From the IMG/VR virus record IMGVR_UViG_3300042542_005523: 64,000 bases of DNA, one strand, 5' to 3'. Source of the stretch: a virus (taxonomy: Duplodnaviria > Caudoviricetes). The translations under genes and the position numbers were made by a program. Under the pieces are notes generated by a model. It made no database searches. It worked only from the letters and a program-made list of their open reading frames with translations, and was not told the DNA's origin. Shown one piece after another: positions 16,998 to 63,433 of this stretch; the stretch's first letter is position 1, and each line of letters starts with the position of its first letter.

Positions 16998-17612
16998 ATG
17001 ATAGAACAGAAAGAGAAGGTTGAGAAAAACATCCAAAAACTTGCAGGGAATTTCCTATTCGAGAAGAACGAGAAATCATTCAAAGAACTTTTTGAGAGAT
17101 TGAGACCCGGTGTATTGAATCACTGCTACGTTATTCTAAAAGACAGGGAATTAGCGGAGGATGCTTTCATTAACACAATGACCAAGATCTGGACTAAAAT
17201 AGATCAATATGACGATGAGAGAGGTAATTTCTCTACGTGGTGTTATAATATTGCACGTAATGAGAGCTTATTGCTAATTAAATCTAGGAACAAATACGTT
17301 TCACAGAATGAAAAGGAATTGGATTTTCATTCAATTAAGCATGATTCAATCATGGGCGAGCATTATGTTCTAGAAAATTCAATTGATTATGCTTTTTTCA
17401 ATGAAGAGAACACTGTTGATGCCGTATATGAGGCGGTCATAGACGAAATAAGAACATTACCTGAACTCTACCGAGACATTATGGTAGACCGAGAGATAAA
17501 TGGTATGAAATACAAGGACATAGCGATCAAATATGGTATCAAGAAAAGATCCATAGCTACGAGAATAAGAAGAGCAAGAGCTAAGATCAAGAAAAAAATG
17601 GGGAAACCTTAA
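16998..17612 (+). CDS. RNA polymerase sigma factor, ECF/sigma-70 family
   Basis: Region 2 LAEDAF..KIWTKIDQYD..GNFSTWCYNIARN; region 4 LPELYRDIM..GMKYKDIA..SIATRIRRAR. Confidence 0.88.
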   Translation: MIEQKEKVEKNIQKLAGNFLFEKNEKSFKELFERLRPGVLNHCYVILKDRELAEDAFINTMTKIWTKIDQYDDERGNFSTWCYNIARNESLLLIKSRNKYVSQNEKELDFHSIKHDSIMGEHYVLENSIDYAFFNEENTVDAVYEAVIDEIRTLPELYRDIMVDREINGMKYKDIAIKYGIKKRSIATRIRRARAKIKKKMGKP

Positions 17613-24745: not shown

Positions 24746-25105
24746 ATGGCAAAAGTTTATGTTAAAAACAGTGAGCTCCTTAGAGCCGTATCCGAATCTA
24801 AAGAGAAGGGTCAGCTAACAAGAGAGACAATCGATATGTTTACCCTCATGATAGAAGGTATTTCTAAGAAGATGGCTTACAAGGATCCTGACGATAAGGA
24901 CGATTGTATGGCTTTTGCCATGGAGGATCTTTGCAAATATTGGAATAGATTTGACCCTGCTAAATCTAACAATCCATTTGCCTACTTCACTCAGGTTGCA
25001 AAGAATGGATTTGCTAAGGGATGGAAGAAATTACACCCGCCAAAGAATCCTAAAACTATACCCTTCAGTTATATAACAGGGGAGGATAATAGTTACAACG
25101 TTTAA
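24746..25105 (+). CDS. gp55: T4 gp55-like late sigma factor (short)
   Basis: YVKNSELL, DDCMAFAMEDLCKYWNRFDPAKSNNPFAYFTQVAKN. Confidence 0.8.
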   Translation: MAKVYVKNSELLRAVSESKEKGQLTRETIDMFTLMIEGISKKMAYKDPDDKDDCMAFAMEDLCKYWNRFDPAKSNNPFAYFTQVAKNGFAKGWKKLHPPKNPKTIPFSYITGEDNSYNV

Positions 25106-26236: not shown

Positions 26237-27811
26237 ATGGCTGGTTTTATAGATAACGAAAATGGTAATCCGGTATTTCAGAGGATTAGGGAATCTGTTA
26301 AGTCGATCTCTAAGTTCGGTATGAAATACGAGGACATGGTGATTAAGAACTCCATGGCTGTTGGCGCTACTGAAGCTGCTTTCATTAATCAGAACAAAAC
26401 AAACGTTCCTGATGAGAATATGATGTATAGTCTTGCGAAGCAAGATACTATGGTCAAACAGTATATCTCTTATTTCGACAAGGATTATAAGGGAAAGAGG
26501 GATTATCTTAGGAAATTCTCTCTTAACCCAGAGATAGAAGGAGTTCTTGATATTGTTTGTGACGAATCCATAAACTACGACCCTTCTAATTATTACGCAT
26601 ATCCCGATTTTCTAGATATAACTACTCTAAAAGAAAAAACAAGAGAAAAGGTTTATGACGTTTTTAGAAAAATATATGACATCTGGGGATTTAGCGATGA
26701 TATAACAGCATGGCAATTCTTTAGACAATTCATGGTGGACGGATTCCTTGCATTTGAAATAATCTGGGACAATAGGGGGAAAGAGATAATTGGATTTAAA
26801 GAATTGGACGCTACTTCTTTAATACCTAGCGTAGAAAAACAACCAGACGGAAGACATGTCAACGTTTGGATACAATTTCCGAATGACCCTAAAAAGACAA
26901 GAATGCTATATGACTCCCAGATCATATACATGTCTTATGCTAAGGGAAATTCAGTTTCCAGATTAAGTTATGTTGAGAGATTAATTAGACCTTATAATAC
27001 CCTAAGAATTATAGAATACACTAGGGTAATTTGGTCAGTGATGAATGCTTCATTCAAGCTTAAAATGACCGTTCCTGTTGGATCAAGATCACCTCAGAAA
27101 GCTATGCAGACCTTGGGTGAACTTATGAGTATCTATAAGGAGGATATTAGCTTGAGCGATGATACTGGTGAATTGCTAGTTGACGGAGCACCTAAGATAC
27201 AATTCTATAAGAATTATCTGATACCACAGGGCCAAAACGGTCAACCTACAATTGAGCCCTTGACAATGGAGGGACCGAACTTAAATGATCCTGCCCCTCT
27301 TGCATATTTCTACGATAGATTCATAGAGGAATCTAAAATACCTGCTACAAGATTTAAGGGGTTAGATGGATCTTCTAGTGCAACATATTCCAACACTGCG
27401 GATGGCCTGGACAAGGAAGAGGTAAGATTTAGTAAGTTCATAAGTAGATTGAGAACCAATTTTCAGGATATCATTATAAAGCCACTTTGGTTACAAATAT
27501 GTAAAGACAATCCGGAATTAGAAAAAGATCTAGTTTTTAAGAGCCAGCTTGGACTTAAGTACATCAGTGAGAACCCTTTTAGGGTAAACCAGGAGATGGA
27601 ATTGATCACCAAGAGAAAAGAAAGCGTAGATTCGCTAGCTCTTATAATGGAAGACGACGATAAACCTTATTTTTCGCAGACTTACTTAATTGAGAATTTT
27701 CTCGGACTTACACCTGCAGACATTAAAGCTAACAAGATAGCAAAAGAAAAGAATGCCAAGAAGAAAGAGAAGGAAGGCGGGGAGGAAGAAGCACCAGAAG
27801 TTACTTTATAA
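26237..27811 (+). CDS. gp20: Portal protein (gp20-like), copy 1
   Basis: PEIEGVLDIVCDESI, FRQFMVDG, LSYVERLIRPYNTLR, FYKNYLIP, EEVRFSKFISRLR. Confidence 0.88.
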   Translation: MAGFIDNENGNPVFQRIRESVKSISKFGMKYEDMVIKNSMAVGATEAAFINQNKTNVPDENMMYSLAKQDTMVKQYISYFDKDYKGKRDYLRKFSLNPEIEGVLDIVCDESINYDPSNYYAYPDFLDITTLKEKTREKVYDVFRKIYDIWGFSDDITAWQFFRQFMVDGFLAFEIIWDNRGKEIIGFKELDATSLIPSVEKQPDGRHVNVWIQFPNDPKKTRMLYDSQIIYMSYAKGNSVSRLSYVERLIRPYNTLRIIEYTRVIWSVMNASFKLKMTVPVGSRSPQKAMQTLGELMSIYKEDISLSDDTGELLVDGAPKIQFYKNYLIPQGQNGQPTIEPLTMEGPNLNDPAPLAYFYDRFIEESKIPATRFKGLDGSSSATYSNTADGLDKEEVRFSKFISRLRTNFQDIIIKPLWLQICKDNPELEKDLVFKSQLGLKYISENPFRVNQEMELITKRKESVDSLALIMEDDDKPYFSQTYLIENFLGLTPADIKANKIAKEKNAKKKEKEGGEEEAPEVTL

Positions 27812-27825
27812 ATAAAAAAATAGAA

Positions 27826-29475
27826 ATGGCAGGATTTATAGATCCCATACAACCAAATAGTGCATTCGGAACGATACTGAGAAGTCTTTCTCAGATATCT
27901 AGGTTTGGTATGAAGTACGAGGATATGGTTGTTAGGAATTCACAGGCCATAGGTAAAACCGAATCTGAATTCTTCAATGAGCAGGGAACAGGATTTACAG
28001 AAAGTGATGCTTTTTATTGGACGGTTTCTCATTCTGATACGAAGGTAAGAAAGTACATAGCTTATTTTGATAAGGATTACATAGACAAAAGAAACTTTCT
28101 TAGGAAGTTTTCGCTAAACGGTGAGATTGAGTTTATACTCGATACGGTAACTGATGAAGCTGTGGTTTACGACGAGAAGAATTATTTTGCATATCCTGAG
28201 ATCAAGAATTTGGACGTAAGCGATAAGGTAAAAGATAAACTGATGGAGAATTTTTACCGGATCTATCATCTTTTCAATTTTCAGGAAAGTATATTAGCTT
28301 GGCAGGTATTTAGGCAGCTCCTAATTGATGGGTTTCTAGCTTATGAGATAATCTACGATAGCAGAGGCAAGCAAGTCATTGGATTTAAAGAACTCGATGC
28401 AACATCACTTCAGCCTATGGTTGAAAAAGTTGGCGAAAATGATTTTCAGCAGGTTTGGGTTCAGTATCCAAAGAATCCCCAGATGACAAGAAAGCTTAAG
28501 AATGAGCAGGTTATCTACATATCATATGCTAAAGGTAATTCAATTTCCAGGGTAAGTTATGTTGAGAGATTAGTTAGATCCTATAACATCCTGAAAATAA
28601 TGGAGAACAGTAGGATTATATGGAATGTCATGAACGCTTCATATAGATTGAAGTTTGTTATACCTATAGGTACACAGTCACCACAAAAGGCCATGCAAAC
28701 GCTAGGACAAATAATGTCTTATCATAAAGAGGAGATATCTATAAACGACAATTCAGGGGAATTGACTGTTAACGGAAGACCAAAAATTCAGTTCTATAAA
28801 AACTATCTTTTCCCTGAGAAGGATGGTGTTTCCCCTACCATAGAAACACTAAATGCAGCTGGACCTGATTTTAATATCATGGACAACGTGCTTTACTTCT
28901 TCAATAAACTAAAGCAAGATTCTAAAATACCGTATGCGAGATTTGCTTATAGAGGTGGAACACCTGCAAACAACCAAATTAGCATTGATTCTTTAGAAAG
29001 AGATGAGATAAGGTTCGAGAAGTTTCTTTCCAGATTGAGATCGATTTATCAGGAAATCATAGTTAAGCCTCTTTATATACAAATGTGTCTTGATTATCCT
29101 GAGCTTGTAAAAGATAGAAGCTTTAAAACTAATCTTGGAATTAATTTCGTAAGGGAAAGCGAATTCAACGATCTGGTTGAACTTGCTAATCTAGTTAAAA
29201 GAGGGGATTTTATAAAATCTCTTGCTGACATGAAAGTTAAAGTTGGTGAAGAAGAGCAGCCTTATTTTGATAAAGATTTCCTTGTTCAGAGATTTTTAGG
29301 TCTAACACCGGAGCAGATAGAGGGCAATGCTTCATACAAAGAGCTCGAAGCTAAATCTGCTAAAAAGGAAAGCTCTACTAGCGGAGCTGAGGGCGAGGCA
29401 GCTCCAGCGGAAGAAGAAGCGGCAGCTCCAGCGGAAGAAGAAGCGGCAGCACCCGCTGAGGAAAAGACTGCATAG
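27826..29475 (+). CDS. gp20: Portal protein (gp20-like), copy 2
   Basis: GEIEFILDTVTDEAV, FRQLLIDG, VSYVERLVRSYNILK, FYKNYLFP, DEIRFEKFLSRLR. Confidence 0.88.
   Translation: MAGFIDPIQPNSAFGTILRSLSQISRFGMKYEDMVVRNSQAIGKTESEFFNEQGTGFTESDAFYWTVSHSDTKVRKYIAYFDKDYIDKRNFLRKFSLNGEIEFILDTVTDEAVVYDEKNYFAYPEIKNLDVSDKVKDKLMENFYRIYHLFNFQESILAWQVFRQLLIDGFLAYEIIYDSRGKQVIGFKELDATSLQPMVEKVGENDFQQVWVQYPKNPQMTRKLKNEQVIYISYAKGNSISRVSYVERLVRSYNILKIMENSRIIWNVMNASYRLKFVIPIGTQSPQKAMQTLGQIMSYHKEEISINDNSGELTVNGRPKIQFYKNYLFPEKDGVSPTIETLNAAGPDFNIMDNVLYFFNKLKQDSKIPYARFAYRGGTPANNQISIDSLERDEIRFEKFLSRLRSIYQEIIVKPLYIQMCLDYPELVKDRSFKTNLGINFVRESEFNDLVELANLVKRGDFIKSLADMKVKVGEEEQPYFDKDFLVQRFLGLTPEQIEGNASYKELEAKSAKKESSTSGAEGEAAPAEEEAAAPAEEEAAAPAEEKTA
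29398..29460 (+). repeat. 24-bp tandem repeat in portal-2 tail (AAPAEEEA x2 plus degenerate copy)
   Basis: GCAGCTCCAGCGGAAGAAGAAGCG at 29398 and 29422 exact, third copy degenerate. Confidence 0.9.
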
Positions 29476-34308: not shown

Positions 34309-34860
34309 ATGAGGAAAGAGCATTCAAAACTTATCGATAAAGTTATATCCAGTTTAGATTGGGATTCTATTTTTGAGGTCTATAAGGCATTCAAAATGGG
34401 AATAGGCGAGGGTAGCAACGTTATACCTGGCATTAAAAGAAAACCTTTTAGCGATTCTCTTACCAAGAATGACATAAAGGGAGAGCTTAAGACTATACTA
34501 AAACAGGTAATAGACGGAGATATATCCGACATAACATACGGTCCTTGGATCATAAACTGGGACAATGGCGACTGGGAGCCTGTTGAGGATGAGATGGACG
34601 AGGATATCGATGACCAGGAGGAGGAAAATATTGAAGATCCTAATATAGTAAATTCAAGGCTTGAGGTTATCTATGCACCTCAACGAATAGCCCTTATAAT
34701 TAACTCATTAAAGGATGAACAACCCGAGGGAGAACTCAATGACTCTTATTTAATAGAGAGCTTGATGCAGAAAGCTATTAAGAATGAGGATTATGAACTA
34801 GCTTCTAAATTCAGGGACATTTTGAAGCATCAGGATAAAGAACAAAGTTCTGATATATAG
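34309..34860 (+). CDS. Hypothetical protein with C-terminal UvrB/C (UVR) motif
   Basis: KAIKNEDYELASKFRDIL; acidic central linker. Confidence 0.6.
   Translation: MRKEHSKLIDKVISSLDWDSIFEVYKAFKMGIGEGSNVIPGIKRKPFSDSLTKNDIKGELKTILKQVIDGDISDITYGPWIINWDNGDWEPVEDEMDEDIDDQEEENIEDPNIVNSRLEVIYAPQRIALIINSLKDEQPEGELNDSYLIESLMQKAIKNEDYELASKFRDILKHQDKEQSSDI
34852..34860 (+). promoter_or_regulatory. Late-type promoter GATATATAG overlapping TAG stop
   Basis: Exact motif ending 3 nt before GTG 34864. Confidence 0.5.
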
Positions 34861-34863
34861 TAG

Positions 34864-35355
34864 GTGAAATATATTAAATCAATAAACGAATTTGACACAG
34901 GTACCCCGTTTGGTGATACCTATGGATACGGCGGGGCAAATGGTGTTTTTAAAATAAACTATAAGCCATTTTCTGATCTTTCTATAGAAGTTGGCCCGGA
35001 TCCCAATGTGCCTAGATCTATAAAGGGATCTGAATTTCAGGTTGGTGATTTCGTTGTAGCTGAGCCTATTAACTCTAAGAGCAAAAAGAATAAAAAGATT
35101 GGTATAATAGTTAGAGCTCAAAAAACACCAGACTCAAAGGGATTTAGATATTTCATACAGGTTTTCAATATAGGGAAGCTTACTGAGAAAGTAATAGAGG
35201 TCAAGCCTAATGCTATACAATTTATAGACCAAGGTGATAAAGGACACCAGGATTTACTTTCCAAATACAAGATCGCTCAGCTTCCTGGTAAAGCATTCAA
35301 TTCTCCTACCGTTTACAACGATGCCGATCTTGGTCTTTCTACCGTAGGTGGATAA
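34864..35355 (+). CDS. Putative head-packaged protein with KOW-like domain
   Basis: N-terminus MKYIKSINEF; FQVGDFVVAEP..IGIIV. Confidence 0.55.
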   Translation: MKYIKSINEFDTGTPFGDTYGYGGANGVFKINYKPFSDLSIEVGPDPNVPRSIKGSEFQVGDFVVAEPINSKSKKNKKIGIIVRAQKTPDSKGFRYFIQVFNIGKLTEKVIEVKPNAIQFIDQGDKGHQDLLSKYKIAQLPGKAFNSPTVYNDADLGLSTVGG

Positions 35356-37007: not shown

Positions 37008-37036
37008 TTTTTTTCTTGATATATAAAAGAAAAAAA
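37008..37036 (+). promoter_or_regulatory. Late promoter GATATATAA (37018-37026) forming the loop of a 10-bp hairpin
   Basis: TTTTTTTCTT-gatatataa-AAGAAAAAAA. Confidence 0.6.
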
Positions 37037-37040
37037 TTCT

Positions 37041-37820
37041 GTGGTTTTTAATTTCAAAAGTTATCTAAAAGAATCTAAAAGTCCCTTCTATAACGAAGAA
37101 CTTTGCCCTCTTTTTTGGGAAAAAGAAGGAGATGGCAAGGAGTTAGAGTGGAAGCTAGATCCTCTTGTAGGAAAGAAACTTCTGGATATAGCGAATGATT
37201 TTATAGAGGAAGGTTCGGATGTGCTAAAGAAAAAGGATGTTTTGGACATTCAGCTTGTTGGGTCCTTAACTGGTTATAACTGGAACCAGTATTCTGATCT
37301 GGATCTACATATTATTGTAAATTTCAAAGACATGGGCGATGATCCTAAAATGATAGACTATGCTATGTATGGTCTAAAATTCTCATGGAACACGAAACAT
37401 GACATAACAATGAGAGGACATGACGTGGAGATAGCAGTACAGGACGAAGGATCGGAAAGCTACATTTCTACGGTATATTCACTTAGCAAGAAGAAATGGA
37501 TTAAGAAACCTAAGTACTCACCACCTAAAATAGATGAGTTTATGGTGAATAAGAAGTTTAATTCTTTGGCTTACGATATAAGTAAGCTTGAAAATAAGCT
37601 AGTACTGGGCAACGTTTTTCCTTCTAACCCCAAGCCTCTGTATAATATGGCTGCTAAGCTAAAATCTAAAATAATGAAAATGAGAAAAGAGTCCTTATCA
37701 AAAGGAGGGGAATTCTCTGTTGGCAACCTGGTCTTTAAGAAACTCAGATCTGAAGGATATATAGGTAAATTGATCGATACGATCACGAAGTCATACGATA
37801 AAATATACACAATAAAATAA
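37041..37820 (+). CDS. Pol-beta-type nucleotidyltransferase, putatively virion-packaged
   Basis: VGSLTGYNWNQYSDLDLHI (hG[GS]..DxD) plus DVEIAVQD third acidic; N-terminus FNFKSYLKES. Confidence 0.75.
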   Translation: MVFNFKSYLKESKSPFYNEELCPLFWEKEGDGKELEWKLDPLVGKKLLDIANDFIEEGSDVLKKKDVLDIQLVGSLTGYNWNQYSDLDLHIIVNFKDMGDDPKMIDYAMYGLKFSWNTKHDITMRGHDVEIAVQDEGSESYISTVYSLSKKKWIKKPKYSPPKIDEFMVNKKFNSLAYDISKLENKLVLGNVFPSNPKPLYNMAAKLKSKIMKMRKESLSKGGEFSVGNLVFKKLRSEGYIGKLIDTITKSYDKIYTIK

Positions 37821-52221: not shown

Positions 52222-52252
52222 AAAAGGCCTCGAGTTTCTCGGGGCTTTTTTT
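52222..52252. terminator. Bidirectional terminator between convergent genes
   Basis: AAAAGGCCTCGAG-ttt-CTCGGGGCTTTTTTT, A run on the left and T run on the right. Confidence 0.8.
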
Positions 52253-52985
52253 ATTGCTTTCTTCTTTTAGATAGTGTCTCTATGAATTTATCTTTTGCCA
52301 ATTTCAGAATGTCTGATTTTTCTGAAAAGTTTTCATAGATCTCAACAACATAGAATGCTGGAGTGAAATTTTTATCAGCTCCCATTTCGGATAAGATCTC
52401 GTGATAGATGTGCTCGTACGATAGAGAGAATTTCTTATTGTTCAGAGATATTTTTTTCATTACTATGACATCTTTTTTACTTCCCTCCGTATTCATTATC
52501 GTTTCCTTCCAATAATACGGGATCAGTCTTTCTGTTATCATATTTCTTATTAGTAGAACACCTGATTCCGAAAGCCCTGAAATTCTATCGTATTTAGACT
52601 CTAGCTTGAATATCTTGATCTTTTCCTCTTCCTCTTTAATGATCTCTAAGCATATCTCTGAGAATTCATATAATATACCTAAAGACGATGAAATAACCTC
52701 GTCTATCTCTTTGAAAGTGTCGCTTTGTTTAGGCAGATCCACTATCTTATTGTATTCAGATAGGGATTCTTTAGATATACCGGCTAGTAAAAACCCTGGT
52801 ATTTTCCTACTTTCCTTGAATGAGCTCATTGCTTTAACGAGAGTAGATATCTCCTTTAAACTGCTCAGTACTGAGGGACCGTCTAGATTTTGACTTTTAT
52901 TTTTTAAAAAATCTAAAAGCACATAGCTTTTGTGCTCTACGTCAAGAGGACTTTCCAAAAACCATATTGGGTTCAACTTCTCCAT
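52251..52985 (-). CDS. Hypothetical protein (only minus-strand gene; track strand label wrong)
   Basis: CAT at 52983-52985 reverse-complements to ATG GAG AAG TTG (MEKL); TTA at 52251 is the stop after KRRKQ. Confidence 0.85.
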   Translation of the reverse strand: MEKLNPIWFLESPLDVEHKSYVLLDFLKNKSQNLDGPSVLSSLKEISTLVKAMSSFKESRKIPGFLLAGISKESLSEYNKIVDLPKQSDTFKEIDEVISSSLGILYEFSEICLEIIKEEEEKIKIFKLESKYDRISGLSESGVLLIRNMITERLIPYYWKETIMNTEGSKKDVIVMKKISLNNKKFSLSYEHIYHEILSEMGADKNFTPAFYVVEIYENFSEKSDILKLAKDKFIETLSKRRKQ

Positions 52986-52994
52986 GTCTTTTTT

Positions 52995-53023
52995 ATTATA
53001 CCTGTTATCTTATATATGGTTAC
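52995..53023 (-). promoter_or_regulatory. Candidate middle-type promoter GTAACC-N17-TATAAT on minus strand
   Basis: Forward ATTATA at 52995 and GGTTAC at 53018. Confidence 0.4.
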
Positions 53024-53039
53024 AAAAAAATCTCAAGAA

Positions 53040-53048
53040 GATATATAG
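53040..53048 (+). promoter_or_regulatory. Late-type promoter GATATATAG
   Basis: Upstream of ATG 53062. Confidence 0.7.
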
Positions 53049-53061
53049 AATTGATTAAATT

Positions 53062-53499
53062 ATGGGAAGAATACAAGACTATCAACATTTTGCAGCTGCC
53101 AAGACTGATAAACATGCTAGAGGTGAATACTCTTTTATACATACTCTTGGTGAAACTGACATATCGTTAGAAAATGTTCCAGTTGAACTAAAGGAACTAT
53201 CTGACGTGAAAGCCTCGGTGGAATATTCTATAGAGACTATAGCCACTAAGTCCGGAATAGAAGGAATATCTTTCAGAGTGGATATGATAGAATTAGTCTT
53301 TTCTGTTGACAAATACCCAAATGATGTCGAGGAGATTGATCTTGATATTGCTCCTGGACAAAATATAGAGCACGGAAGAATAAGACCCATTGAATTGGAT
53401 AGCATAATTCCAACTAACCCTTCTAGAATAGAAATCAATATGGGTAATAGTTTAAACGTTAGCAATTTCATAATCACGGTATTTTTTGGAAATGAATAA
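53062..53499 (+). CDS. Hypothetical late protein
   Basis: 145-aa ORF, MGRIQDYQHF N-terminus. Confidence 0.6.
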   Translation: MGRIQDYQHFAAAKTDKHARGEYSFIHTLGETDISLENVPVELKELSDVKASVEYSIETIATKSGIEGISFRVDMIELVFSVDKYPNDVEEIDLDIAPGQNIEHGRIRPIELDSIIPTNPSRIEINMGNSLNVSNFIITVFFGNE

Positions 53500-54481
53500 C
53501 AGATTGCTGGATTTTAATTTATTCATAAACGAGTCTTCTCCCAGTTTCAAAGGAGGCTCTTCTGCTTATAACATAAGTGAAAGATGGGACGGAGGCTATG
53601 ATATAAGAATGTGCGATTCCCTTCTAAACGGTGATCGAATGGACGAATCTTATATAAACATTGCTAAGAAAACTGAAAAGGCTGTTGCATTAGCTTATGT
53701 TAAGCCAGACGGTAAGCACTCCGAGTATTTATGGATTCCATCTTCAGCATGCTTCAAAAAGAAATACGTTTCTAGTTCTGGTGCTTATTATCCTGTTGAA
53801 ATACCATCTTATACTTACTGGTTCAAGGACGAAGCTAACAGAAGAAAATTAGAAAATTTCCTGAATGACTTTGTGGACTCGCAAGAATTAAAGAAGAGAA
53901 AGGGAATAGATGATATTTTGGAACAGGCCAAGGATGACCTAGATTTAATACTAGATCAGGTTGGTCTTAATGATGCTATTGCTTCCCTGGAAAGGGGAAG
54001 TTCAGATTACCAATTTGAGGGTATAACAGAGAATGGGATGAATGTTATAATAAACAAAAGATCCAAGGAGGATCTTGTTGGTGACTTTGAAATATATTCT
54101 TCCAAGAAAGAAACAAGACCTGCTATAAGATTCAGCTACACTAAGGGATCTAATCAGCCTTCCTTCATATTCAATATAGACGGTAAAAATTATCAAGCAA
54201 GTGCTAGGATAACAGAGGTTGAAAATAATCCATACCTAAGGTATCTGATACTAAGATCCCTTAATAAAGAGAAGCAAGCAGAGAAAGACGGTCTGCTTAA
54301 TTATTACATAGAGCTTCTAAAGTCACATGATTGGGACTATCAATATTCGGACGACTCCAGAACATACAAGGCTGGCCAGAAAGATATTAATCACATCAAT
54401 GAAGTTGGTGATCTTCTTAAGGAATTTATGCCCGAAAAAGAGGTGTCTGACATTTATTTGAACTTTTCAAATAAAAAATAA
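53486..54481 (+). CDS. Putative internal head protein with C-terminal HDWxY..SDD module
   Basis: LLDFNLFINES motif (start may be 53492); ELLKSHDWDYQYSDD..YKAG. Confidence 0.55.
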   Translation: MEMNNRLLDFNLFINESSPSFKGGSSAYNISERWDGGYDIRMCDSLLNGDRMDESYINIAKKTEKAVALAYVKPDGKHSEYLWIPSSACFKKKYVSSSGAYYPVEIPSYTYWFKDEANRRKLENFLNDFVDSQELKKRKGIDDILEQAKDDLDLILDQVGLNDAIASLERGSSDYQFEGITENGMNVIINKRSKEDLVGDFEIYSSKKETRPAIRFSYTKGSNQPSFIFNIDGKNYQASARITEVENNPYLRYLILRSLNKEKQAEKDGLLNYYIELLKSHDWDYQYSDDSRTYKAGQKDINHINEVGDLLKEFMPEKEVSDIYLNFSNKK

Positions 54482-54483
54482 AG

Positions 54484-54511
54484 GAAACTTATTCATTTTT
54501 ATCTCTAGAAT
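54484..54511 (+). promoter_or_regulatory. Middle-type promoter GAAACT-N16-TAGAAT
   Basis: Intergenic, before small ORF. Confidence 0.5.
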
Positions 54512-54517
54512 CTAATC

Positions 54518-54652
54518 ATGGAAAGAATAGATTCGATTGACCACGGCCAGATTTTAAAAATATCTAAGCCGAATGGCAACCATATCTACGGATTTGAAAG
54601 GTCTGATGATCAAATTATGACTAGAATTTACTTCTATAACATGGGAAACTAA
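54518..54652 (+). CDS. Small 44-aa protein missed by ORF track
   Basis: MERIDSIDHGQILKISKPNGNHIYGFERSDDQIMTRIYFYNMGN*; fills the gap and has its own promoter motif. Confidence 0.55.
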   Translation: MERIDSIDHGQILKISKPNGNHIYGFERSDDQIMTRIYFYNMGN

Positions 54653-54672
54653 GTGAATTTTTCGAATAAAAT
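54645..54672 (+). promoter_or_regulatory. Middle-type promoter GAAACT-N16-TAAAAT
   Basis: Upstream of ATG 54685. Confidence 0.5.
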
Positions 54673-54684
54673 AAAAAGAACTGG

Positions 54685-55338
54685 ATGTTCGAGAGAATTG
54701 CAAATATTTTTAAAATAAAAAAAAGAAATATGTCTGATAACGGAGAAGAAATCAGTGTTGAGATTTTAACCAATAGATACACTAATCACGATTTTCAATG
54801 GATCAAGGGGGAAAATTTAATGAATGTTGTCTCATTCGATGTTGTTACACAGCAGGATGATCAATTTTATATACACTTTAAAGGTGGTTCTAGAATCAAC
54901 TACAATATTCTCGAGGAATATATGACGTGGTATCCGGCTCAAAGAGTTGAGCCCCGTCCCGCACCTACACCAGCCCCGCAGTCACATGCATCTGTTTCAT
55001 CTATAAAATTTGGCGATACCGGAACTGCTGTAAATGAAGCTTCACAATCTCCGATATATAATTTGTTAGCTAGACAAAAAAAGAAACCGGTTGAAATAGA
55101 GTTTAAGATTAAAGTGCCTCTGCCATCCAAAGATCTTTTTAATGTTCTAACCAGTTCCTTTGATGATGCTGAGAATGAAATTGTACAATTTATCATAGAT
55201 AGCATAGACATCGATGATATTAGAAACACTCTTTCGAAATCAATAAGAGAAAATTATTACGGCTCAGCAAATAGCAAACCAGCCGTACAAAAGGAAACTG
55301 TAAAAAATAAAAAGATAAGAGAAGAAAATGAAGAATGA
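54685..55338 (+). CDS. Hypothetical protein
   Basis: 217-aa ORF; start may be 54730. Confidence 0.7.
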   Translation: MFERIANIFKIKKRNMSDNGEEISVEILTNRYTNHDFQWIKGENLMNVVSFDVVTQQDDQFYIHFKGGSRINYNILEEYMTWYPAQRVEPRPAPTPAPQSHASVSSIKFGDTGTAVNEASQSPIYNLLARQKKKPVEIEFKIKVPLPSKDLFNVLTSSFDDAENEIVQFIIDSIDIDDIRNTLSKSIRENYYGSANSKPAVQKETVKNKKIREENEE

Positions 55339-55912
55339 TGACAAAGTATTGTTTTCATCAGAATATTTAAATCTGATAGAAAGAGACGGTAAAGTAGGAA
55401 TAGTTCCTAACTTCTCCAATGTTGTTATTCTCCCCTATATCGCTGATAAAGAGGGACTTCCCCTACTTATTGGTGTTTTGAAGGAGTATAATGTTTTTAG
55501 GGAAGGTGGATATTCAATCTCTCCTATCACCGGATCCAGCGATGACGAGGATCCTAACTTTTTAGAAACAGCTAAAAGAGAGCTGCACGAGGAATCCGGG
55601 TATATGGTGAGCGATAATGATAGATGGTATTTTCTAGGAAATGCAATATCGTCTAAGTTTGTTGATCACGAACAGCCTTGTTTTGCTGTTGATGTTAGCG
55701 ATTTGCAAAGAGAGGAACCCACTACAGACGGAAGTGAGCAAGAAGCTCTTTCTAAATTTGTCTTCATACCAGCTAATGACGTTGTTAAATGCAAGGACGT
55801 TTTCATTCCAGCTTTATTTTTAAAGCTTTTTAAATTTGTATTAGGAAAAGATCTACACAATCCTGATTCGGAGGACCTTTTTAAACCAAAGGGATTTAAT
55901 ATCACTTTATAA
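55328..55912 (+). CDS. Nudix hydrolase
   Basis: Nudix box GSSDDEDPNFLETAKRELHEESG. Confidence 0.8.
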   Translation: MKNDDKVLFSSEYLNLIERDGKVGIVPNFSNVVILPYIADKEGLPLLIGVLKEYNVFREGGYSISPITGSSDDEDPNFLETAKRELHEESGYMVSDNDRWYFLGNAISSKFVDHEQPCFAVDVSDLQREEPTTDGSEQEALSKFVFIPANDVVKCKDVFIPALFLKLFKFVLGKDLHNPDSEDLFKPKGFNITL

Positions 55913-55919
55913 TTTTTTT

Positions 55920-56195
55920 ATGAGTCAAAATAGAAGAGAAAGAAGGAGATTACAGAGGGAACTTAAAAAAGTTGACCCTACAAATTCTTTAAATGAAATC
56001 GTTACATCTGAGATGGGAGCGGAGATACGTAGAAGATATCTGCAAAAATTAAAGAATGAGCAGGTAGAGACTCAAGAAGTAAGTGATTCTGAGTATACAC
56101 CATCCTCATTGAACCTAGCTCCCCCCGAGGCAACATATGGTTCTTTTAAGAATCTTGTTATAAAAAGAGATTGGGATTCTGTCTCTGAGGATTAA
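55920..56195 (+). CDS. Small hypothetical protein
   Basis: 91-aa ORF with basic N-terminus NRRERRR. Confidence 0.65.
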   Translation: MSQNRRERRRLQRELKKVDPTNSLNEIVTSEMGAEIRRRYLQKLKNEQVETQEVSDSEYTPSSLNLAPPEATYGSFKNLVIKRDWDSVSED

Positions 56196-56213
56196 TTTAC
56201 CGTCTATTCTTGG

Positions 56214-56271
56214 AGGAATATATATTAGGGTGATATGCTAAAGATACCACCCCTAAATTAACTATATTCCT
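56214..56271 (+). promoter_or_regulatory. Long leader hairpin containing late-like promoter AATATATAT and abutting ATG 56273
   Basis: AGGAATATA/TATATTCCT outer stem; TTAGGG/CCCTAA inner stem. Confidence 0.6.
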
Positions 56272-56272
56272 A

Positions 56273-58123
56273 ATGGGTTATTATTACATAGTAAATGGAG
56301 TTGACGTTGGTCAATCTAATGTTCTCGATTCGAATACTCCCTCCGTTCTTTACGATGAGAGAATTCTTCAGCTTAATGCTCAAAATACGATACAGAGAGC
56401 TAGTAATCTAGGCTCCGATAATCCTTATAAAGGTCCTGCTCCAAGAACTCTTTTCTATGATGCTGGCTTTAGAAGACCCGGTAAGTATGGGCAGTTTCTT
56501 ATGTATGCATTCGGGAATGGTGAGAATGATTTCATGGAGTCTTATTACAGCTCAGAGAATGCAACATACAATTCAAAGATATCCTCTATACAATCTAAGA
56601 ACCCCTCTGCTGCTTTTCTAGTTAGCAGCAGCGCATCTTTAGAAGCATCCTCACTGAGTAATACTTTGAATAGTTACCTTTCTAATAATCTTGGAGGCTC
56701 TATAGTAGGAGGGCTTGCTGCCCCGTATAATTGGAAGGATTTCCTCTATTGTAAATATTACGGAACTATACCCAATAACTACATGGTCACTCTAAGAAGA
56801 TTCCCAACCCCAATGAGGGATAATTTAAGTATACCGTCGTCTGTAGCAGATTCCGATTCAACTAGAAGGGAGGGAGCAGGAAGACCAGTAGCTCAAGCAG
56901 TTACATGGTTAGGAGACGATACTGGTAACAAGCTGAGCACCCTAATAGGATTTACAACAGGATTGGAGTGGCTTTCGAAGCCACAAAGTGGGTCGATAAC
57001 ACAGGAAGCTTTTGATAAGGGCCTTTTCAATTCGCTGCCTTATTCAATACCAGATATTGCCAAACTCCTTGGAGATGCTGCACCAACGGATGCAGATAGC
57101 TTACAGAAGCTATTTAACTTGGTTGCATCAGTAGCCGATCCTAACCAAATAGCACAAAGGGGAGGTTTAGCTTCTGTTTTGAGGGATAAAGCTGTAAATG
57201 AGCAAGATGGCGCTCTATCAGATTTTATATGGACCAGTGTAGATACCGTAAGTAATACGTATATAAGAGACAGGGGATTGAGTTTCACAAACACTGGTAT
57301 GTCCCTTGCCTTCCATTATGACCTGACTTCTATAGGAGAGGTTAACACAAAAGCAGCTATGCTTGATCTTATGGGGAGCTTACTTGGACTGGGCACTAAT
57401 TATGGTAACTTTTTAACACCCACTATAAGATACAACAGCGAATTTTATCCAGTAGGATTCCCAGGTGGAAATGCAGGACTTGCTAGTTTTTATAGGGACC
57501 CTATCAATTTTATAAAAAACCACTCAACTGATATAAATGAACTTTTGACAGGTGATCAAGCAGGAGCAGCTTCTGAAGCAGCCGGCAAAATAAAGGAAAC
57601 GATAGGCGCAAATGGTACAAATGATCTTGCCAATGTAATAACAGGTGGAACATCACCCGCTGTTGAAAGAGCGATTAGCATAGCTTTGCAAGAGAAATTT
57701 ATAGAAAAGGTTCAATTACCTCTTTCTTTTTTAACGGGTGCACCAATCGGGGAATGGCATCTTGTAGTTGGCAACCCGTGTAACCCGATAGCGATGATAG
57801 GGAATCTTATTTGTGAATCTGTTCAGATTGAGTTTTCTGAAAGATTAGGTCCCGACGATTTCCCAGCTGAATTGAAAGCTACGTATACATTAAAACACGG
57901 AAGAGATAGGGAAAGAGGTGAGATTGAATCTATGTTTAATAGAGGTGATGGTAGATTATATCAGTCGTCACTACAGACTTATGCAAATGGACAATCCGAT
58001 GGAGCATTTTCAGATACTCAGGGTAATAGAATTAATCAGAATTATGCACAGAAAATTACATCTGGAGTTCTTCCTTACACTCAAAGCGACGCAGACTCGC
58101 AAGGTCCCATAACGAATCCTTAA
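56273..58123 (+). CDS. Baseplate/tail-tube-associated protein (gp48/54-like)
   Basis: Start of baseplate block; WHLVVGNPCNPIAMIGNLIC..GPDDFPAELKATYTLKHG. Confidence 0.45.
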   Translation: MGYYYIVNGVDVGQSNVLDSNTPSVLYDERILQLNAQNTIQRASNLGSDNPYKGPAPRTLFYDAGFRRPGKYGQFLMYAFGNGENDFMESYYSSENATYNSKISSIQSKNPSAAFLVSSSASLEASSLSNTLNSYLSNNLGGSIVGGLAAPYNWKDFLYCKYYGTIPNNYMVTLRRFPTPMRDNLSIPSSVADSDSTRREGAGRPVAQAVTWLGDDTGNKLSTLIGFTTGLEWLSKPQSGSITQEAFDKGLFNSLPYSIPDIAKLLGDAAPTDADSLQKLFNLVASVADPNQIAQRGGLASVLRDKAVNEQDGALSDFIWTSVDTVSNTYIRDRGLSFTNTGMSLAFHYDLTSIGEVNTKAAMLDLMGSLLGLGTNYGNFLTPTIRYNSEFYPVGFPGGNAGLASFYRDPINFIKNHSTDINELLTGDQAGAASEAAGKIKETIGANGTNDLANVITGGTSPAVERAISIALQEKFIEKVQLPLSFLTGAPIGEWHLVVGNPCNPIAMIGNLICESVQIEFSERLGPDDFPAELKATYTLKHGRDRERGEIESMFNRGDGRLYQSSLQTYANGQSDGAFSDTQGNRINQNYAQKITSGVLPYTQSDADSQGPITNP

Positions 58124-62752: not shown

Positions 62753-63433
62753 ATGCCAAGTGAAAGAACCCTACTGGGGATAATAGTAGACATAGATGAT
62801 CCTCTAAAAGAGGCTAGGGCAAAAATCCGTGCTTTTGGATTTTTCGATGATGTTGCAGTAGAGGATCTCCCTTGGGCAGAACAAATCGCTGGATTATCTT
62901 TTGGCGGAGGTGGCGGAGGGGGTAACCTGACTATACCTAGATTGGGAGCTGTTGTAGCGGTTCACTTCGAGGAGAATAATTACTATAAGATTACCTATCA
63001 CTATATTAAGGAGATATCTAGTGATCTTTTGGATAAGATGCAGGAGGATAACTGTTACACGGGTGCAAACTATTTAATATATGATTCCGAGGCAAAACCC
63101 GGTCCTTTGCATATGTACTATACGTATAAGGATGGTGTTGTTTTTGAATTAGATAATGCAAAAATACAACTGGACACACAGAATGGTGGTCAGCTTAGAG
63201 TGGTTGTAAAAATGGGTGACGATGAGATTAGAATGGAGAATAGCAAAGTTATCATAGAATCTGGAAATATAGAACTAGGTAGCGGTACTAGTACATTGGA
63301 AAAGGTTATACTTGGTGATACATTTTTAAGCTTCTTTAATCAGCACACACATGCTACACCAGCAGGACCATCCTCCCCTCCTGCTTCACCGATGACAACA
63401 GCTCAATTGAGTTTCATCACTAAAACTAGGTAA
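62753..63433 (+). CDS. Baseplate central spike (gp5 OB-fold/P2 gpV-like), short
   Basis: GIIVDIDDPL..RAKIRAFG..DLPWA, IPRLGAVVAVHF; C-terminal HTH metal motif (HTHATPAGPS). Confidence 0.75.
   Translation: MPSERTLLGIIVDIDDPLKEARAKIRAFGFFDDVAVEDLPWAEQIAGLSFGGGGGGGNLTIPRLGAVVAVHFEENNYYKITYHYIKEISSDLLDKMQEDNCYTGANYLIYDSEAKPGPLHMYYTYKDGVVFELDNAKIQLDTQNGGQLRVVVKMGDDEIRMENSKVIIESGNIELGSGTSTLEKVILGDTFLSFFNQHTHATPAGPSSPPASPMTTAQLSFITKTR

Follow-up and report, generated by a model that had tools for sequence, protein, structure and literature searches.

A conserved hairpin over a late-type promoter box before a virion gene of a T4-like giant phage, and its possible role as a translational switch

Background

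The stretch of DNA examined here, called the window throughout, comprises 64,000 nucleotides (nt) of IMG/VR virus record IMGVR_UViG_3300042542_005523 (Duplodnaviria; Caudoviricetes), a giant phage from lake water whose capsid protein belongs to the T4 gp23 family, and the element in question is a hairpin in the 77-nt gap between a small gene, here called Y, and a gene encoding a protein of 616 amino acids (aa). An original prediction, made from the sequence alone, had described a 58-nt leader hairpin that gates a baseplate operon at a middle-to-late boundary in the manner of T4 genes e and soc. In the T4 leaders of gene e (lysozyme), soc, 49 and I-TevI, and also in that of Aeh1 mobE, a hairpin lies over the translation start region and a late promoter lies in its 5' part (PMC3014915), the T4 late promoter being a TATA box of 8 base pairs (bp) with no -35 element (PMC2988020). 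Judged by the 616-aa protein and the capsid protein, the nearest isolated phages have Tenacibaculum, Flavobacterium, Chryseobacterium and Prevotella (Lak phages) as hosts, and a search of isolated phages by DNA gave no match. The listed sequencing runs that contain this DNA include DNA runs from lakes and no RNA run. Comparison with related leaders indicates that the hairpin is real and evolutionarily maintained, and we consider below what it may do, which other explanations compete and how it may have arisen.

Results

Genes and signals at the locus

The 616-aa gene (Table 1) sits four genes before the gp5-like hub gene, and this neighbourhood is what supports the word "baseplate" of the original prediction, as a tentative identity. 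Sequence and profile searches of the 616-aa protein against PHROGs, Pfam and PDB found no match, its AlphaFold model (predicted local distance difference test score, pLDDT, of 44) was too poor to search with, and an Atlas lead to T4_tail_cap scored 0.88, under its own threshold. An SD-like (Shine-Dalgarno-like) core precedes just three of the 54 genes in the window and leaders are A-rich, so the GGAGG at 56212-16 is not regarded as a ribosome-binding site.

Upstream of the gap lies a unit of a 217-aa gene, a Nudix-like gene and gene Y. The candidate promoter class of this unit, GAAAC-N17-TAnAAT, is enriched in the window: both strands together would be expected to contain 1.2 matches, and the + strand has five. 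In 19 of 29 relatives such a motif is found at -1917 to -2036 relative to the 616-aa start, which agrees with where the 217-aa homologue begins. The earlier assignment of the upstream genes to a middle class gains some support, all of it from this motif. A second sigma-factor gene in the window (16998-17612; phrog_1740, E = 2.4e-22) could read this promoter class. Downstream of a strong terminator at 52222-52250 comes a late-type box at 53041, and from 52250 to 56273 the + strand has no further predicted terminator. Within the 217-aa gene the late-type variant ATATATAA, preceded by CCG in the codons for P-I-Y, is invariant in 23 distinct relatives and in loci L045-L047 (about -1500 in L001-L039); it may serve the Nudix-like and Y genes as an internal promoter.

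Table 1. Positions of the features discussed, in window coordinates
Feature	Position	Strand	Remark
gp55-like late sigma factor	24746..25105	+	phrog_234 "late sigma transcription factor", E = 2.7e-15; probably reads the box
Second GAAAC-N17-TAnAAT copy	54484-54511	+	precedes the 217-aa/Nudix-like/Y unit
Candidate non-late promoter GAAAC-N17-TAAAAT	54645..54672	+	for the 217-aa, Nudix-like and Y genes; possible source of read-through
Late-type box variant ATATATAA	55054..55061	+	within the 217-aa gene; possible source of long transcripts
Gene Y, 91 aa	55920..56195	+	last gene of the upstream unit; gene X follows Y in more distant relatives
Conserved block CTATTCTT	56204..56211	+	near-invariant CTATT-N-TT in all same-layout relatives
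Outer stem, 5' arm AGGAATATA	56214..56222	+	overlaps the upstream edge of the promoter box
Late-type promoter box ATATATAT	56218..56225	+	family consensus ATATATAG
Inner hairpin	56225..56256	+	immediately 3' of the box
Conserved A/U block TAAATTAA	56254..56261	+	invariant columns; 56254-56256 close the predicted inner hairpin, the rest unpaired in the fold
Outer stem, 3' arm TATATTCCT	56263..56271	+	stops one base short of the start codon
616-aa gene	56273..58123	+	first of a conserved block ending at the gp5-like hub gene (62753-63433)

The hairpin in the window

The fold of the leader has two tiers. A single unpaired A (56272) separates the outer stem from the ATG at 56273-56275, and within the outer stem TTAGGG (56225-30) pairs with CCCTAA (56251-56) and TG (56231-32) with CA (56248-49), pairings on which the reading of the letters given in the original prediction and RNAfold agree. 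The predicted structure has an energy of -15 kcal/mol over 58 nt (z = -2.79; of 200 shuffles, 4 are as stable); in wider contexts of 83-141 nt the z-score lies between -1.0 and +0.5. Its stability ranks 652nd of 21,314 among sliding 60-nt windows, within the top 3%, while the window as a whole has 118 inverted repeats of at least 9 nt with arms at most 70 nt apart, and the duplex energy of its arms is attained by 2.3% of random pairs of neighbouring 20-mers. By such statistics alone the hairpin is unremarkable, and the case for it rests on its context and on comparison with relatives.

The context is more selective. Among the 14 promoter-box sites in the window this is the one site where the segment upstream of the box pairs strongly with the start region, and just 0.2% of other 13-mers in the same neighbourhood pair equally well with the segment before the ATG. 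A covariance model of the leader finds a single match in the window and a single match per related locus, by which a repeated or mobile element is ruled out. That the hairpin is not an intrinsic terminator, as had been argued from its missing U-tract, is borne out: no T-run follows 56271, where the true terminators of the window have 5-8 T, and the predictor gives no + strand match here. A terminator-like match on the - strand over the inner hairpin lacks a real U-tract and has no - strand gene close by. A leader peptide encoded by the small open reading frame at 56235-56261 is likewise ruled out, its ATG being absent in L101 and L098, and a scan of the leader against Rfam 15 gave mir-190 as its best match, at 17.5 bits against a threshold of 48.

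Conservation of the fold in relatives with the same layout

Metagenome and protein searches yielded closer relatives (64-98% protein identity) that likewise lack a further small gene, X, and have a gap of 67-77 nt, giving eight distinct leaders besides that of the window. All eight share the two-tier fold, with the outer stem adjoining the ATG. The stem itself differs by lineage: AGGAATATA/TATATTCCT in the window corresponds to GAGGAAT/ATTCCTC in L044, L045, L046 and L099, which is lengthened to 10 bp in L100 and has a variant 5' arm in L102, and to TGAAATAT/ATATTTCA in L047, where both members of two pairs are replaced (A-U for G-C and U-A for A-U). The 5' arm of L047 forms a duplex of -5.8 kcal/mol with its own 3' arm, compared with -0.3 to -3.4 kcal/mol with the 3' arms of the other lineages. 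When the pairing is ranked against all 13-mers of its own locus, p is 0.002 in the window, 0.0008 in L047 and 0.005-0.007 in L045 and L046, with none of 2960 as good in L100, and it is weaker in L099 (0.014), L102 (0.027) and L096 (0.10). G-U pairs occur in both helices (L096), which suggests an RNA structure and not a DNA palindrome. In an alignment of the leaders 81-82% of the cells assigned to pairs are paired, as against 33-53% when the partners are slid.

The inner hairpin is kept in another way: six unrelated sequences occupy the same position, each with p of about 0.01 against dinucleotide shuffles except that of L045. In near-identical strains the leader is unchanged while flanking coding sites differ. 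A screen of further related contigs for leader variants added nothing new beyond a minor L044-type contig, and a scan of viral contigs with P0026 returned distant relatives only. The block CTATTCTT (CTATT-N-TT) is kept in the leaders of the clade lacking X, the divergent L046 and L047 included, at 14-16 nt 5' of the box, and was not found at the other box sites of the window.

The late-type promoter box

The letters AATATATAT at 56217-25, in the 5' arm, had been called late-like, and this assignment has held up well. The consensus ATATATAG occurs 13 times on the + strand of the window and never on the - strand, against 5.6 expected on both strands together, while other ATATATA octamers are rarer than expected (7 vs 20). 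Ten of the 13 copies lie between genes, at a distance of 21-60 nt from the start codon that follows, and the genes behind the copies include those for the neck, the tail sheath and the prohead protease/gp23 capsid protein. The box, the gp55-like sigma factor and a clamp loader that is encoded in the window as well suggest, by analogy, promoters of the T4 late type. At the leader, all relatives keep the ATATATA core while its 3' partner has degenerated to TAGAT, CAGAT or AGAAT, and the core is therefore conserved for something other than pairing; in L047 the box has the exact consensus ATATATAG.

Two other box sites deserve mention for their own sake. At 37008-37036 the box GATATATAA forms the loop of a perfect inverted repeat of 10 bp of A and U (TTTTTTTCTT/AAGAAAAAAA), which lies 4 nt before a GTG at 37041; the duplex energy of this repeat, -7.9 kcal/mol, is the second strongest among the box sites. 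Within 34853-34866 an ATATATAG box ends only 3 nt before the listed GTG start at 34864, so that either this start is mis-set or the messenger RNA (mRNA) is nearly leaderless.

Relatives with gene X

The 616-aa protein also occurs in 43 viral contigs at about 50% identity (L001-L043), with the same gene order and the addition of gene X. This gene, which encodes a conserved protein of about 110 aa, lies between Y and the 616-aa gene and ends 12-21 nt before the ATG (for example L002:2607-2936); no Pfam family matches it. It is absent from the clade of the window, and the relatives that have it are without the leader hairpin.

An ATATATA(G/A) box is present in all 29 distinct relatives that contain X, inside X and 144-153 nt (about 148) before the 616-aa gene (at about 2808 in L002). 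There ATATATAG is read as the codons GGA-ATA-TAT-AGT (G-I-Y-S) with zero synonymous change in the 29 relatives, while invariant residues beside these four use 2-5 codons. By this comparison the box within X is constrained at the nucleotide level and looks like a promoter embedded in coding sequence, and the box is the predicted operon promoter of the whole family. The clade without X keeps GGAATATATA at -55, the same letters as in the G-I-Y codons of X.

In the relatives with X, the segment upstream of the box pairs with the start region at a mean of -4.4 kcal/mol, which equals the background, and the start region is unmasked; the gate therefore arose within the clade from which X was lost. 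A hairpin just 3' of the box is present in many of these relatives (mean z of -1.05, with 8 of 31, representing seven distinct sequences, below -2.4), which hints that the inner hairpin belongs to promoter-proximal RNA. An idea formed by eye, that the gap is the decayed C-terminus of X, was dropped: neither the X protein profile searched against a six-frame translation of the window nor a DNA profile of the -100 to -1 region of the relatives gave a match at 56196-56272. The claim of sequence common to the gap and X is confined to GGAATATATA at the box.

Discussion

A possible promoter-in-hairpin switch

We put the chances at about even that the leader acts as a promoter-in-hairpin switch of the T4 e/soc type. 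The structure, its conservation and compensatory changes, the identity and conservation of the box and the lack of a predicted terminator are computational findings; the start site, the read-through RNA and the translational effect are inferred, and would combine as follows. The late-type box overlaps the 5' arm, and the 3' arm covers positions -10 to -2 relative to the start codon. Read-through RNA from the upstream unit would carry both arms, the stem would fold in the A/U-rich start region with the inner hairpin closing the loop, and such long transcripts would be translated poorly. A gp55-type late polymerase would start just 3' of the box and give transcripts without the 5' arm, in which the start region would stay accessible. 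The energy needed to open positions -18 to +10 is 7.9 kcal/mol for the long leader and 6.6 kcal/mol for the short one in the window, and the long leader is the costlier of the two in every lineage, by 0.3-6.4 kcal/mol.

Several likenesses to the T4 genes favour this proposal: a stem in which the start region is paired with a segment further upstream, a late box of the 8-bp TATA type that has no -35 element and lies in or over the 5' strand, the lack of a predicted upstream terminator, and a phage with a gp55-like sigma factor and a gp23-family capsid protein. There are also differences. Here there are no SD sites, and the stem masks the A/U-rich stretch from -10 to -2 before the AUG instead of an SD sequence or the AUG; the box consensus is ATATATAG where that of T4 is TATAAATA; the leader has an inner hairpin in addition, itself conserved; what would be gated is a virion gene without a known family and not one for lysis or an accessory protein; and the device, known here from sequence alone, is limited to a subclade that lost the intervening gene. 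The kind of device is already known, and what sets this case apart is initiation without SD sites, evidence on the origin of the gate and a coding-embedded promoter in sister clades.

A number of observations weigh against a switch. The late-type boxes at 53041 and 55054 also lie upstream of the leader, so that the phage may synthesise long and short transcripts simultaneously, which would blunt a temporal switch, and the middle-to-late boundary that had been placed at the leader is in this respect not a clean one. The box at 56218-25 has the 7-base core but differs from all 13 canonical copies at position 8 (T for G), and this T, together with the G-rich stretch behind the box, may make it weak. 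The difference in opening energy, although of the expected sign throughout, is merely 1.3 kcal/mol in the window and 0.3 in L096, and the predicted effect in the window is therefore modest. The AUG itself is unpaired, and there is no SD site to hide. The late start near 56231 was placed by analogy with T4; if transcription began 6 nt past the box, as it does there, the start would fall in the 5' strand of the inner hairpin, and it would then be hard to see what role this conserved hairpin has. In L096 a change of CC to TT puts two G-U pairs into the outer stem, which is much weaker there (-3.0 kcal/mol). Covariation across homologs, which had been proposed as a check, is seen directly as the two compensatory pairs of L047, but the signal from alignments is weak: 24 of 500 and 16 of 500 shuffles match the observed values in a model-fitted alignment, and RNAalifold gives only -0.95 kcal/mol. 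This weakness arises because the inner hairpins cannot be aligned and both aligners shift the L047 stem out of register. Most of the lineages are also closely related, so that the independent events are few.

Alternative explanations

The strongest competitor, which we nevertheless think improbable, is that the leader serves RNA processing or stability, either as an endonuclease site of the RNase III type that separates cistrons, as between T7 genes, or through the inner hairpin as a 5'-terminal stabiliser of the late transcript. The T7 intercistronic sites are likewise irregular hairpins of about 60 nt that have two stems, upper and lower, and an asymmetric internal loop, and that lack a U-tract, and the leader is roughly compatible in geometry, with a stacked helix of about 9 + 8 bp and an asymmetric internal loop carrying the conserved UAAAUUAA. 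An inner hairpin kept by position and not by sequence, and the presence of a hairpin after the box in many relatives with X, would also be accounted for. The whole helix is, however, under two full turns. Cleavage is what defines the T7 sites, which have no fixed relation to a promoter box or a start codon, whereas in the present leaders the 3' arm is always found next to the ATG and the 5' arm reaches into the box, an arrangement that processing leaves unexplained.

Distinctly less probable is a constitutive attenuator, in which every mRNA for the 616-aa protein would originate upstream, the box would be a dead relic and the stem would simply lower the yield of the first virion gene. A box that is off-consensus at position 8, a conserved stem beside the ATG and the lack of a predicted upstream terminator are all compatible with it. 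A dead relic is hard to reconcile with a core kept regardless of pairing when such heptamers are depleted elsewhere in the genome, with the exact consensus in L047, or with the strict nucleotide constraint on the box in the 29 more distant relatives.

Slightly less credible again is that the stem is a functionless by-product of the loss of X, the gap being what was left and a self-complementary TATA-type box pairing easily with A/T-rich arms. It is true that X is missing exactly at the gap, that GGAATATATA is common to the gap and the G-I-Y codons of X, that the statistics within the window are ordinary and that the stem is weakened in L096. A neutral origin would not predict the compensatory changes in L047, the own-locus p of 0.0008-0.007 in the window, L045, L046, L047 and L100 (weaker in L099, L102 and L096), the replacement of inner hairpins by new hairpins instead of their loss, or a leader held constant in near-identical strains whose flanking coding sites vary; profile searches, moreover, detect no homology of the remainder of the gap to X.

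We regard as very improbable a DNA operator in which the inverted repeat provides two half-sites for a regulator of the promoter: the arms are symmetric around the box and the compensatory changes would keep a DNA palindrome too, yet the half-sites are at least 40 bp apart, L096 and the inner helix contain G-U pairs (G-T in DNA), and the inner hairpin varies in sequence while its fold stays, as fits RNA. Finally, a split ribosome-binding site as at T4 genes 38 and 25, where a hairpin separates an SD-like sequence from the start codon and would here bring the GGAGG at the foot of the stem to the ATG, can be set aside, since SD-like cores are so rare in this phage, whose nearest isolated relatives infect Bacteroidota, and the motif, partly inside the stem, is lost in L047 (CCCTGA) and L096 (AGTGG) while the pairing stays.

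Origin of the gate

The distribution of the leader allows a tentative scenario, to which we would give clearly less than even chances: the gate may have arisen anew in an SD-independent phage after the loss of a small gene that carried the late promoter as G-I-Y-S codons, the shortened leader then evolving a stem that masks the A/U-rich region before the AUG in read-through RNA. The comparative series would date the origin of the switch, with those that kept X having the promoter in codons and no gate, and those that lost X having a compact gated leader. T4-type logic would then work on initiation of the SD-independent, Bacteroidota type, and the series would show how such a switch is born.

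Were the switch itself confirmed, promoter-in-hairpin logic would reach beyond T4 to giant phages that are T4-like but distant, with Bacteroidota as the hosts of their nearest cultured relatives, and in which translation initiation depends on open A-rich leaders instead of SD pairing. The late-promoter motif ATATATAG, which is well supported, and its coding-embedded copies should help in annotating transcription units in uncultured giant phages.

A further observation concerns the window at large. Two neighbouring genes, at 26237-27811 (E = 1.9e-52) and 27826-29475 (E = 4.7e-62), both match the portal-protein family phrog_213, and the pair may represent a duplication of the portal gene.

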